A stretch of 64,000 bases of DNA from Narcine bancroftii (Eukaryota): contig NC_091474.1 of the NCBI RefSeq assembly GCF_036971445.1, positions 18,972,001 through 19,036,000 of the forward strand, in the 5' to 3' direction. Under the pieces are notes generated by a model. The model saw only the letters and a program-made list of their open reading frames with translations, was not told the DNA's origin and did no database searches. Positions 39,301-45,300 of the stretch are shown in pieces (within the stretch, counting starts at the first letter, position 1; the number at the start of each line of letters is the position of its first letter). Made by a program: the position numbers and the translations under genes.

Positions 39301-42300
39301 TGAATATGGCAGACAATTAAAGTGAGAGGAGGAAATGTCAAGAACTCCACTCTTTGATTGGAGGGCTGAACAGAATTGCCGTCAAACCCAGGGGTGCTGT
39401 GCTAATTTTTTTAGATGCTGGAACTGACAAAATGCCTGCCATTTCCTTGATTCATTCTCTCTCTGAAATGAGCAGGTACACCAATTTAAGAGAGAAATGA
39501 ATGAATAGGCCTTTTAATGTCAAGCACTAAACCAAGATGAAAGAAATATGAATTTCAGGGCCCCACAGAAATATAGTGATTAGTTTACAAGATTATAGCC
39601 TATCACTATATTTCACTGTGTAACTGGTACAGTAAAACATTTAATACCTAATTTAGTAATATGACAAAGTATTGCATGGTTGCTCTCACTAATGATCATA
39701 AAATATAACTCAATAAGTAAAGTGCGGTAATCATGCATTTTACCAATTTAAAATTAATTCACCAACTTCCCAAATGCACCAATGAGAAGCTTCACAGTAA
39801 TTTCCACAAAGGGTCAGGCGTAATGTTTTTGGGGGTCTAAAGCAACTTCTGTCCTGGTGTCATCTGCTGTCTGTGGTGGCGTACAGCACAGGATTGCACT
39901 GAACTAGAGGAGGTCCATGTAGTTTAACAAACATAAGTGCTGAAGCATGATTTACGAGCATTCTTGAGCATGTTGTTGTTATCAAATTCATATAACTGAA
40001 TCCACTCTCTCACTTAGTACTAATAGAAATAACTTGTGAACAGCTAAGTAATGGGCGTAGATCTCGGGTAACGCAGCATCCACGATCCTCCACAATCTCT
40101 GGAGGCATTTATTAGAGGAAGAAGAAATCTTAAACCTCTTATAGAGAGATTATATTGCAGCTTCTTCAGGATTAGGTGGTATTTCAACAGGCCAGTAGCC
40201 TTTATCAAGGAAGCATTTCATTTAGCAGGAATTTATACATATTTTGAGGTTCAGAAGTTTGAGAACCTTTCAAGGATGTCATAAACACATGGTGCTGTAA
40301 ATTGTTTTATGACTAGTAAGAAACTATAGATAATTGTTGTTGCTTGTTGAGGTAATTTCTCCAAATTTCCCCTTTTTAATGGCCTCTTGAGCTTTTAGTT
40401 TTTGTACCAGGTTGCTCTTTAGTCCGTGCTCAGTTGGATCACTGTTTGCAGAAACACTCTGACAGTAAACCAAGTTCATGCATTGTGTTAAACATTGAGC
40501 TAAGTCCAATAGAAACTGTTCTAGAGTCTTTTCAACCGACCTTCATAGGTTCTTCTGTCACTCCCAGATTTTGTTTCATCTTCATTGCTTTTTCAAAATG
40601 AAAAATTTTGCCGCACTGCTGAAACTGTTCCAAAAGAGCTACCGACCCACCTGGTGCCAAAACACAGCCTATTTTGCAAATTTGTTGTTCTAGTTGAGAG
40701 GTACATTTAGATGGTTCCTTTTGATTTAGAGGTGATCGACTGTAAACAGAGTACAATTTGTATATAAATGATTGAAAATTATTAATACCATGAACTTCTC
40801 TCACTGAATCACCCACTGCAAGTTCTAATCTGTAATTTAAGACAGTGCCAAATTATCACCTCAGGTTAATATTCCTTGAGAATTGTAGCAACACCATATT
40901 TGACACCAAGCATTTCACTCGCTCCATCACTAGCATATGCTACAAGGTTCTGTTTCAAGTGAGAGTAATCAAACCTATGGTCATTGAGACAGTTCTGATC
41001 AGGCAGTTCAATGAGGTCTAAAGCCATAAAATGGGGACCACCTTCCTTATCGCTTTCACATTTCAAATAAACTATTAGTGTAGTCTTGATGCTTAGGTTT
41101 GTTGATTTATCAATGTGAACAGAAATGTATATTTGCTGGCAAATTTTCTTTTTCATATTAATGGCTATGTGATTATTTCTGTTGCACTAGTTTGGGAATG
41201 GAGTCCATTTCCAATGTCAATAACATTTTTGTTTTGAAGTTCCAGTAAGCCAACGTATGGTCTGCCATTCTGAGCTAAATAATATGCAGAATGAAAAATT
41301 TGAACAAGGTGCCTTTAGATGTGAACCATTCATGGTGTCACAATTTTCCAAGAGCATCGCCACGTAGAGCAGCAATGTGAGCCTTTGACAGTTTGCGATC
41401 ATCAATTTTTTTCTGACAGACTTCAAGTGTGTTCTCCAATTGGCTCCACAATAAGATACTTGATACATCTGCCATTCATATCCTTAGAAGTGAAAAATGT
41501 CAGATGGCTTATGTTTGCACCTATTTATTATCCTTGAAATCTAACCAGGGATAAGTTTCCTTTTTCTTCCACATTTCTTCTGTCCAAATGCTTGAAGAGG
41601 GACACAAGCATGACTTCGAAGCACCATTCAGAACTACATTTGGACCCAGTTAGAAAATATAACCTAGAGGCAAGCGAAACACAGCTTTTGTCACTCACTG
41701 TATTCACTATCAGTCTCTTGTATGTTATTCTTGTTACACTCCTCAGCTTGTTTACGAAAGTTAACATTATCTCTCTCCATCTAAGCCTTGATCTCCTTTC
41801 TTCCCTTTCCCATCAGAGAGCTACCCTTAGTCCTCTCCTGTCACTTATCAGCCTCTTTCTCTTCTACTCTCCCATCTGTATCCATCTTGCTTGTGTGCCC
41901 CCCCACCCCCCCCCACATTTTTTAAGTGTACCTGTTTTAGAAAATTTCTGAAACTTTACTACTTCTGGATGCTGCGTGACCTTCTGAGTTTCTCCAGCAC
42001 TTTTGTGTATTGCACTCGACTCCAGCATTTGCAGATTTTCTTGCTTTCGTATAGTCTTACCAAACCTGACTTGGGAGAAGAACCGTGTGGGCCACTTTTA
42101 CATTTCCCCCCAAATCGACCAAATGGCCACTTCCTTGGATCATAAATCCCAGACTGGAAGAGAACGAGAAAATAACGGGAGGACCACCCATCATTAGCAG
42201 AGAATCTGTACTCAAACTGCACCAAGACCCTCCCGGCCTAGTTGACCTGACAGTCTTCCTCGCGGGCAAACACATGGAGATGGTGTTCGAGTGTGGACAA

Positions 42301-45300
42301 TCCTACAGGAACACAAGTCAGACCTTGACCGTCACATTCACAGCACCATGGCTGCTGGACAAACGTACTAGACTCTTGTAATGTCTGAGTACGTCCCATT
42401 ACTTAGGCAGGATGGACCCAGAGGAGGTGGTACAATGGTATGAAGATCTGAGGGATTGTCTATGTCCCACCTGCCCCACTTCATCCACAAATCAAACACC
42501 ATAAACTAAAAGCAAAATGGTTTATTTCCTGTTTGACTGTTGAGTTATTTTTCCCCTTGGGGAAAAAAGAAGTCACCATCTGTGTAAGAGGACGCTTGTT
42601 GACCAGGTCCGCGGCACCCGCCACTGGATGCAGGGAGCCTCTTTCCTTGCCATCTTCTTTATCAGCTTTTTCCAATCAACCCTGTCGTCGAACTTCTGCT
42701 TCGACCTTTTTGCTCTCAGCATCTTGAGGCCAAGAACAGAGAAGCCGCCAGCCTAACTCCTTCCATGGCCCTCACTATGCCCCTTTCAACTCTGACCAAC
42801 GTGGGTGGATCCTACCAGGATACCAGTGGATAATTCCTGCACAAATTTGATTTATACCACCCATATTGCAAGACAAAGTGAACAATCCTCCCAATTTGTT
42901 TGTTTTTCTGTAACCTCGTAGTAGCATGAATAAGGTGAACCCTGCCTTGATGTGATTGACTGCTCAGGCACCCAATCAGCATCCGGCTCTCCCCCCAGCC
43001 CGCCACCTCATCCCGGTGGGGACGACCCATCAGGGTGAAGCCAGTTGTTGTAGCAGCTTCAGGTCTCGACGTGACGTATCCTTCAGCTATTGAGGGCTTC
43101 ATTCATGTACCCAAGCCCAACGAGGAAGGGTTTCAGGACAAATTTTTCAGGAAAATGAAGGAGAATCCATTTGTGCTGATTGGTTATTAGTGGTATTTTT
43201 ACCCTGCCAACCACCACCCTCTCTCCACATATCTGAACCCAACAACTGCTTCCATAAAATCTCCTTTATTTAATATGAGGTTGCTGTTAAATTCTGTACT
43301 AGTTAAAATTCTCGACTTGTTTATTTTGCCTTTTCTTACAGAGGTGCTGGAGCACTGCTCTGGCAGCACTACACCCCTGGTAAAACTTTTGTGTGGCTTG
43401 AGTGTTTTCAGCCATTTTCCACTGGAAGTTCCCATTGTTTGATTTCTGTCATTGCAGAAACCAGCTTTGGTCTAATATGGTTTGCAGTCATGAGATTGGG
43501 AAGCATTTGAGAGCACTGGCTACTGCAAATGTTTTGAGACCAGTTAATTTCTCACTATAGAAGGCAGATTTGTGCTCTAGAACAAGCTATGCTTTTCATC
43601 AGACTCTCGTAACAGTTATAACACTGATGTGCACAAAATGGATATTGCCCAGACCTTTCCTGTTTGCAAAAATAGGACCAATTCATTTGGGACATCAATC
43701 CACTTTCAATCATCGGAAAAGATTTAGAAGTGTTGTTGAAACTGCAGTCAAACAGCAGTTGCTTTTGAATAATTTGTGCATTCATGAACAATTTGAGTTT
43801 TGTCATTCATAGCTCCAAACCTGATCAAAACCTTATCTAAGTATGGACCAAAGTGCTGAACTTGCAAAGTAAACTGAGAATAAAACTTTTTGATGTCGAG
43901 GCAACTTTGGCAGAGGAACCCTGATAAAACTTAAGTCAGTCGGTGTAAAAAGATTATGATCATGGTTGTTGGAAGTCGATTATCTCAACACCAAGATGTC
44001 ACTACCAGTATTCTTCAAGGCAGTGTGCAAGCTGCATCATCAGCTATTTCATCAAAGGTTTCTTTCCCACTCCCTTTCCACTATAATATCAGATGTGAGG
44101 ATGTTTCAAGATATCTCCGATTCAGAATCAGAATTTGACATGAAATTTGCAGCAGAATCAGTGTAAACATTCATATTATAACCATCTTACAACATACATT
44201 TTAATTAAAAAAAAAATAGGAGTGCACGAAAAGTAAAGCAGTTTCTTTGGTTCATTGATTATTCAGCAATCTGATGGCAGCGGGGAAGAGGCTGTCCTTG
44301 TGCAGCTGAGTGATCGTCTTTAGGCTCCTATACCTTTCCCCGATGGTAATAGAGTGAAGAGGGCATGGCCTGGGTGGTGGGGGTCTTTGAGGATGGAGGC
44401 TGCTTTTTTTTTTAAGACACCGCCTACTGTAGATGTCCTCAATGGAGTGAAGTCTGGTGCCTGTGATGTCGCAGCCCATTCTAGCTCCCGCTGCCCCCAC
44501 TGTCTGAAGTTGTGATCTCTCAGTTCCCTGACCGCGGATCCTTGCCCTGGCCAGAGGCTCCTAGGGGCCGGCTGCCCACCTATTAGAGCTTCTGATGCCT
44601 GACACCCTGGCCATAGACTCTCTGCGAGGCCCCAGTTGCCTGCTCATCTGATCTCATGATGTCCTGAAAGTGGACTTAGCATCCAGTCCTGGCCATCCAA
44701 GCTTCTGATACCTTGAACAACACAGGTACTTCCAGTGGTCAAAATATGACCCATGTAAAATTTGGTCCCACCCCCCAAATTTGACCCAAAAAACTTGACT
44801 ATTACATGAGGATATATGGTATGATTCTGTCATGTCTGCTGTAAGTGCATTATCTGATGTTAGTTGAGATAAACATTGCAGATATTGTGAATTTACCTTT
44901 CAATTTTGAGCTCATGTGTGGGGCATCATGTTGTATTGAAAGTTGCGTTCAGTGGTGGGCAGGTGAACTTGAGTTTGCAGAACTTTTAAGTTTTTTTTTT
45001 CTTTATCGCTTCTTTCAGAAAATAAACAGACGACTGCATTTGTCCAAAACAAAGCACAGTAAATTTAATGAGTCCGGCCAGCTTGCATTTTTCTATTTGT
45101 TTTCTTTTCTCTGGGGAAGCAGCATATTGACTGGAGTAAGTATATATTTTGATTCAAGTGTTTGCTTGGATAATTGTATAAAATAAAATGGCAATATATA
45201 AGGTTTTCTTTTATTTTAACAGGAGAAGTTTACAACAGATCCTACTCTCTTATGGGAAAAATATCCACATCTCCACATGTTGTAAGCATGTTTTTTCTAA

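Follow-up and report, generated by a model that had tools for sequence, protein, structure and literature searches.

A twelve-copy hAT transposon subfamily in Narcine bancroftii carrying the captured promoter and first exons of NOP16 and HIGD2A

A 64,000-nucleotide stretch of the Narcine bancroftii genome (the window: assembly GCF_036971445.1, contig NC_091474.1, positions 18,972,001 to 19,036,000, forward strand) contains, at 39389-43379, a decayed hAT transposon copy carrying captured host DNA from the locus at which NOP16 and HIGD2A share a promoter. Very probably, the twelve-copy subfamily to which it belongs arose when 1.41 kb of host NOP16/HIGD2A DNA replaced about 1.1 kb of the element's own upstream region and start through one microhomology-guided template switch, the product then being moved in trans. 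By its biological features the element is a multicopy Pack-TIR, a transposon holding host DNA between its terminal inverted repeats (TIRs), and the gene capture is of a known type; new, as far as the searches reach, are the lineage, the copy number, the size of the cargo, the two-way promoter and its exchange for the element's own start.

The element, its cargo and the parental locus

The element is bounded by short TIRs of 15 bp, as is typical of the hAT superfamily, complementary at 13 of 15 positions (39389-39403 against 43365-43379) and recurring in other copies of the family. Outside them lie the two halves of a decayed 8-bp target site duplication (TSD), GTCAAACC and GTAAAACT, identical at six of eight positions, a level of at least 6/8 that random 8-mer pairs from the window reach at a frequency of 0.007; TSDs of this hAT length flank five of the seven testable cargo-bearing copies. 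An initial reading made from the letters alone (the sequence-only reading) had proposed an element of about 4 kb delimited in just this way, with a KIAA1586-like transposase relic on its minus strand, and both proposals are borne out. The minus-strand fragment has 16 relatives among 70 candidates, several of them named 'KIAA1586-like', and a 755-aa relative with a hAT dimerisation domain is tiled by tblastn across about 39854-41607 of the minus strand, through stops and frameshifts.

Transposases of the hAT DDE type carry CxxH and RW motifs and a C-terminal dimerisation domain; in the family frame the motif positions agree with those of relative P0003, which passes Pfam PF05699 and is 62% identical to the family frame over 735 aa. 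Pfam searches with ten window fragments and with single exons gave no informative match. The family transposase also shares 88% identity with relative P0004 over 475 aa and 74% with a relative from the coelacanth over 663 aa, and a lobster protein annotated as a transcription factor subunit, P0001, matches it at 75% over 239 aa through its C-terminal portion (window 40715-41171). The likeness to these three may hint at horizontal spread among aquatic animals.

The cargo spans 41771-43182, 1412 bp between the left and right parts of the element, and runs from about 850 bp of NOP16 intron 1 through NOP16 exon 1 and the shared promoter to HIGD2A exon 1 (Table 1). In the PDB the HIGD2A piece matches human HIGD2A best (E 0.0018), and it is 73% identical over 49 aa to a sawfish HIGD2A (E 1e-17); the NOP16 piece alone returned no NOP16 match from the PDB and none from Pfam, and was identified through the parental NOP16 exon, which it matches at 72% at the DNA level. 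Both exon identities given by the sequence-only reading are upheld, one by protein search and the other through parental DNA, with the HIGD2A frame starting at 43032, where ATG has become AGG, and not at 43035 as it had placed it. That reading also saw the NOP16 similarity end at the splice donor; the DNA similarity in fact continues for about 850 bp into intron 1, to 41771, so that the cargo is twice as long as first described, and the NOP16 donor GT reads GC in the window copy. A second HIGD2A-like protein of a stingray, P0021, was considered as a product of this element and rejected, being a full-length paralogue.

A DNA search with 42400-43400 returned a single locus without transposon ends, near 32.862 Mb of contig C21 (G000:C21), where an intact five-exon NOP16, its exons placed by motif, lies head to head with an intact HIGD2A (C21:32.85-32.87 Mb). 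The parental locus that the sequence-only reading had expected in the same genome is thus in hand (G000:C21, about 32.86 Mb), and the capture breakpoints map to 41771 and 43182. Parental NOP16 exons 1 and 2 match human NOP16 (E 1.6e-7 and 3.9e-9), HIGD2A exon 1 is named by 55 matches among 81 candidates, and HIGD2A exon 2, 11 kb away, passes PF04588. The head-to-head arrangement, which presumably also holds in human, is shown here for this genome alone; a Nop16 family profile search of the genome gave no match, its controls being silent too, and the parent was located by DNA instead.

Three colinear blocks join window and parent: 41772-42458 with C21:32864923-32865639, in NOP16 intron 1 (78%); 42490-42742 with C21:32862711-32862987 (72%); and 42936-43184 (77%). 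Between the first two the parent holds about 1.9 kb that is absent from the cargo; as ten cargo rows run across this point without a break, and as the extra DNA includes an element with inverted ends of about 155 bp, 91% alike and younger than the cargo, it represents a later insertion in the parent. This insert in parental NOP16 intron 1 (L034:2685-3987) is retrotransposon-like, with terminal repeats in inverted orientation (~155 bp, 91%) and a gag-like frame, and may be DIRS-like.

Since the cargo retains promoter and intron, together with first exons of both strands, from one parental locus, it was genomic DNA and not mRNA that was captured, as had been proposed from the letters. A route via RNA, in which a spliced or read-through transcript was reverse-transcribed into the element, would suit a right join that falls at the last base of the HIGD2A exon plus GT; yet an unspliced NOP16 intron and a promoter are kept, in both directions, and the transposon side of that join reads AT, not an AG acceptor, with no poly(A), making such a route highly improbable.

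The unmodified state is preserved in copies of the same family. Its search gave 451 candidates, the best 40 of which were scored; apart from its repeat piece, the cargo has no match in any of 34 family loci selected through their transposase or right end, whose similarity to the window ends at 41760-41768 and restarts at about 43183. Both borders are present in 17 of the 34, with 545-2696 bp of their own sequence between them (1.0-1.4 kb in ten). This cargo-free slot holds about 1.1 kb including the transposase upstream region and the first five codons of a 741-codon family frame, and the native ATG lies 14 bases beyond the position of the left join; together these show that the cargo removed, and took the place of, the upstream region and codons 1-5. 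The replaced region presumably held the transposase promoter. Two cargo-free copies on C11, L065 and L069 (G000:C11, 104.59 and 104.31 Mb), are 2.6% apart and reflect a recent segmental duplication, not transposition.

Table 1. Positions in the window of the element, its cargo and the flanking host exons
Feature	Position	Strand	Remarks
TRAM1-like exon 3	35259..35377	+	upstream of element
Left TSD GTCAAACC	39381..39388		6/8 identical to right TSD
hAT element copy	39389..43379		TIRs and TSD
Left TIR, on the side of the 3' end of the transposase gene	39389..39403	+	inverted-repeat pairing; common to family copies
Decayed hAT transposase, family-frame codons 6 to ~741	39820..41770	-	stops and frameshifts; lower end approximate
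Left junction	41767..41770		TTGT, a 4-bp microhomology between parent and cargo-free copies; window copy differs at one base
NOP16 intron 1 copy (first ~850 bp)	41771..42621	-	78% and 72% to parent
In-frame ATG within cargo	41778..41780	-	in subfamily's commonest letters; 4 cargo codons before join
SINE-like old repeat within NOP16 intron copy	~41955-42046		
NOP16 coding exon 1 copy	42622..42722	-	ATG retained, 6-bp deletion
Copy of shared NOP16/HIGD2A promoter and 5' leaders	42723..43031		CpG island eroded
122-bp stretch	42812..42933		in 12/12 cargo copies, mid-promoter
HIGD2A coding exon 1 copy	43032..43182	+	ATG mutated to AGG, frame otherwise open
Right junction	43183..43184		GT common to HIGD2A splice donor and transposon (2-bp microhomology)
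Transposon right end including right TIR	43183..43379	+	match to family copies
Right TIR	43365-43379		inverted-repeat pairing with left TIR
Right TSD GTAAAACT	43380..43387		6/8 identical to left TSD
TRAM1-like exon 4	45019..45135	+	downstream of element

Dispersal and age of the cargo-bearing copies

Searching the genome with the promoter-exon part of the cargo gave 14 candidates, all of which were scored and resolved into 12 cargo loci on eight contigs and the parent in pieces; the intron part gave 13, again all accounted for, by 11 of the cargo loci and the parent. The copy closest to the parent lies 58 Mb away on C21. Seven copies have both ends, and in five of them the TSDs match at 8, 6, 6, 6 and 6 of 8 positions, all five being different, which indicates that cargo and element moved as a unit, as the sequence-only reading had suggested. 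What that reading had named as fatal to itself was not encountered: the fragments derive from NOP16 and HIGD2A, the pairing of TIRs and TSD is genuine, and other copies in the same genome with the same TIRs, twelve in all, bear the cargo.

A one-off filling of a dead element, multiplied by segmental duplication instead of transposition, might be read from the five of twelve copies on contig C15 and from the duplicated cargo-free pair L065/L069; similarity among the cargo loci nevertheless ends at the TIRs, the TSDs differ, and the cargo tree is a star in which no pair exceeds 64% support, leaving this account with next to no likelihood. The junctions are identical in the cargo copies. One copy, L025/L081 (G000:C11 near 82.33 Mb), has been split by a local inversion that takes in the cargo and right TIR along with about 870 bp of flanking DNA; its TSD can still be recognised. 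Another, L031 (G000:C1 near 406.0 Mb), later lost most of the NOP16 intron, so that only about 25 bases separate its NOP16 donor from the transposase frame; as the NOP16 exon is followed by a stop, L031 has no read-through frame.

The transposase tree (38 rows, four of 42 having been excluded at <1000 bases) and the cargo tree (13 rows) are both stars, a separate cargo clade is without support, and a founder copy could be named from neither. Non-CpG transposase distances are 0.146 within cargo copies, 0.133 within cargo-free copies (biased low, these having been chosen as best matches) and 0.140 between the two, copies standing about 15% apart; among 2281 transposase columns none is fixed for a difference between cargo and cargo-free copies, and the four that differ are all mixed. 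The far-intron distance to the parent (0.186) is about that among the copies (0.203), which places capture and spread close together in time, and the capture thus appears to have fallen within one old burst, its product spreading at once. Substitution rates in cartilaginous fishes are slow, and at these distances the burst would date to tens of millions of years ago or more. One low-cover DNA run under a second organism label contains 42445-42631 without a difference, an observation that does not date the insertion.

Junctions and competing origins

At the left junction, parent and cargo-free copies have TTGT in common, with a chance expectation of 0.017, and at the right junction the two bases GT (0.16), giving 0.003 jointly. 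On the HIGD2A side only the donor GT is common with the parent, and everything from 43183 onwards is transposon; the sequence G|gttatt, read at first as a retained HIGD2A donor, keeps that status for its GT, the rest being transposon DNA with no HIGD2A intron. The proposed origin is that, as a gap was repaired or a replication fork restarted, a family copy would have switched template to the NOP16/HIGD2A locus and back, the microhomologies TTGT and GT guiding both joins and the swap arising once, after which transposase from cargo-free relatives would have moved the cargo element in trans during the family's single burst. The repair route and the mobilisation in trans, like the present silence of the copies, are inferred.

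A second non-autonomous derivative of the same hAT, about 985 bp long, occurs at L088:1148-2132 (G000:C17 near 3.585 Mb), with a perfect 8/8 TSD, and also at L050, L089, L090, L092, L097, L099 and L101. Its 200-bp left end and 195-bp right end enclose a SINE-like repeat and roughly 100 bp more, and its right breakpoint lies at most 1-2 bases from that of the cargo subfamily, some 35 bases from a G-quadruplex-type tract (in the commonest letters; in 7 of 22 natural copies). The right breakpoint is possibly a repair hot spot in the element.

A competing account of the joins has one family copy inserting into the NOP16 intron and another into the HIGD2A intron nearby, both then losing their inner ends by deletion and moving jointly with the host DNA between them, a model documented for plant Pack-TYPE elements (PMC8903248); deletion repair would leave microhomology as well. 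Neither join, however, retains an inner TIR or TSD; the two parts flanking the cargo come from one element, colinear and without overlap; the right breakpoint of the independent second derivative, at most 1-2 bases away, suggests a repair hot spot; and no family copy lies near the parent (260 kb), so that two insertions are an unlikely source. The same search of 260 kb around the parent cuts both ways: the founding site is either gone or was never near the parent.

A different question is raised by what the cargo put in front of the transposase. The promoter swap might have kept the element autonomous, the NOP16-side promoter driving the transposase from a cargo ATG so that the element made its own enzyme: what the cargo displaced is precisely the upstream region with codons 1-5, codons 6-741 being left, the NOP16 promoter faces the transposase on the same strand, and an in-frame cargo ATG four codons before the join, at a site where today's parent has none, restores a full-length frame whose next family Met comes only at codon 76. 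That ATG is intact in six of the nine copies covering the site and in frame in three, the window copy being shifted out of frame with the transposase by 2 bases. On the other hand, 9% of joins placed at random in the parental intron (399/4493) yield an in-frame ATG no more than five codons away, the transcript would carry the ATG of NOP16 itself and 880 nt of intron at its start, the sole in-frame, open acceptor has 5/17 pyrimidines, subfamily-specific transposase changes that would show selection are absent, and hundreds of family candidates (451) could provide the enzyme in trans; autonomy is accordingly unlikely. In-frame splicing from NOP16 to the transposase was considered as well, a simple pyrimidine count yielding no convincing acceptor. 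A self-powered promoter trap, autonomous through its NOP16 side and with its HIGD2A side, start and donor included, firing outward into each new site, would be an equally long shot on the present sequences.

Against the favoured template switch with transposition in trans stand several points. The 2-bp microhomology at the right is not significant alone, and the founding event has left no local trace, there being no family copy in the 260 kb around the parent, which makes the template-switch route inseparable from the two-insertion route on that evidence. As regards transposition, two of the seven testable copies have no TSD match (3/8 and 1/8), among the five matches two depend on a TIR shortened by one base and one spans an inversion, and five of the twelve cargo copies have no callable end. 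The 122-bp stretch at 42812-42933 has no counterpart at the parental locus or elsewhere in this genome, at the sensitivity used, and is without a source there. The parent and the copies' commonest letters are 20% apart in the promoter and near intron and 10% in the far intron, which is unexplained; between C21:32862387-32863004 and window 42475-43182 many changes are toward G/C in the parent, and fast promoter evolution or GC-biased conversion may be guessed at. The ratio of nonsynonymous to synonymous change (pN/pS) used below is a crude yardstick, without transition correction.

Decay, host gene and known gene captures

All twelve copies have lost CpG, with observed/expected values of 0.16-0.47 against 1.01 in the parent, and at 28 of the 46 parental CpG positions for which data exist TG and CA both occur in the set of copies, which indicates that the island was captured largely intact and eroded copy by copy after the spread, methylation being the presumed cause. 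Both exons have a pN/pS of 0.69, and the transposase has 0.79 in cargo copies against 0.77 in cargo-free ones, so that no selection is seen; the NOP16 and HIGD2A exons carry stops or frameshifts in most copies.

The window copy lies within intron 3 (9.6 kb) of a plus-strand TRAM1-like gene, between the exons listed in Table 1, confirming its placement in an intron by the sequence-only reading. For this gene as for HIGD2A the best named matches come from rays, in keeping with a batoid genome. The host gene is named from named relatives, PDB and ESM Atlas searches with the host exon having been uninformative, and its exon 4 is joined GT..AG to 45223 in three presumed RNA runs. These runs, as assembled contigs, cover the host exon with little or no cover of 42178-43179, and no joint from cargo to host exon is among the joints listed for them, which is no evidence either way on expression. 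HIGD2A exon 1 is of phase 1 and host exon 4 of phase 0, and a splice between them would be out of frame. While still young, an insertion would have brought a start codon and a housekeeping promoter to its new site, together with a GT donor directed outward across the right TIR, making it a potential promoter and exon trap; no surviving use of the captured promoter or donor was found, and the copies are now likely silent relics. Intron 1 of the host gene contains a tandem array of about 600 bp (window 9357-10046) with open frames on both strands.

Animal Pack-TIRs were surveyed by Tan et al. 2021 (PMC8277862), whose available text gives 370 cases, four of them multicopy in reference genomes (three in frog, one in alligator), a median cargo of 224 bp, a required identity of 90% and no Pack-TIRs for the elephant shark. 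The present element resembles those multicopy cases, as described there, in having host DNA between TIR ends, distance from the parent, distinct TSDs, microhomology at the joins and a GC-rich cargo (PMC8277862). Its interior of 1412 bp lies within the 100-5000 bp expected between both ends of one TIR family, its cargo is genomic and not retrocopied, with intron and promoter, it has one unambiguous parental locus that is not element-flanked (the single non-element match), and it exists as several copies with distinct TSDs far from that locus, unlike the single-copy, gap-filling form, in which a dead element is filled once, usually <15 kb from the parent.

The novelty claimed at first was overrated, multicopy Pack-TIRs, including one hAT, being already recorded for frog and alligator (PMC8277862). 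That hAT, Pack-hAT-N8_XT of Xenopus tropicalis, is given in the same excerpted source with 291 bp of cargo in three copies, whereas here the cargo measures 1.41 kb in twelve copies at about 80% identity and comprises an entire two-way promoter with both first coding exons; in contrast to the Pack-TIRs that the text describes, a near-complete transposase is retained (PMC8277862). To find young cases the survey demanded at least 90% identity to the parent and a length ratio of 80-120%, which excludes the element, at 72-78% identity and with a parent that gained about 1.9 kb; this is a detection filter, not a biological definition, and the survey would have missed this case.

Among other systems, the HelibatN3 Helitrons of bats (Grabundzija et al. 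2016, PMC4778049) are described, in the text available, as carrying the NUBPL promoter in thousands of copies, with transcripts shown. They too represent a promoter, coding start and splice donor captured and dispersed by a vertebrate DNA transposon, although by rolling circle; here a cut-and-paste hAT, twelve copies and two promoter directions are involved, the likeness, in principle that of a promoter and exon trap, is in layout alone, and the HIGD2A exon of the window copy has lost its ATG and would splice to the host out of frame (PMC4778049). Plant Pack-TYPE elements, including Pack-hAT, have in common with it TIR ends, TSDs, captured coding DNA and amplification, but by definition have no transposase match (none >250 bp in the packFinder class), whereas 1.9 kb of transposase relic places this element in an autonomous or autonomous-derived class, so far as the available text defines the class (PMC8903248). 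In Ssk-FB4 of Drosophila, as outlined in part of Tan et al. (PMC8277862), an upstream region and gene were likewise captured, a template-switch origin was proposed and transposition followed; that case is young, expressed and nearly a whole gene, with a candidate parent element 0.6 Mb away, whereas here the capture is old, only fragments are present, and the 260 kb around the parent contain no family copy. No earlier description of the element was found among the papers listed in open-literature searches, and the family may be catalogued in Repbase or Dfam; among the papers listed on the NOP16/HIGD2A bidirectional promoter, none concerns transposons by title or abstract start.

Multicopy capture by cut-and-paste transposons is rare in vertebrates, with four cases in a survey of 100 genomes, none of them in the one cartilaginous fish found listed in its available text (PMC8277862). 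The present case is unusually well resolved for vertebrates in combining the parent, the unmodified family, base-level joins and a dozen independent insertions; being too old for the filters of Tan et al. 2021, it suggests that such captures are likely undercounted. A whole CpG-island promoter can be carried about by a transposon, even though the island has eroded in every copy, and the same right breakpoint in a second derivative makes a repair hot spot testable. Should the reading hold in which the swapped promoter drove the transposase, it would represent a novel route by which transposons acquire host-type expression.

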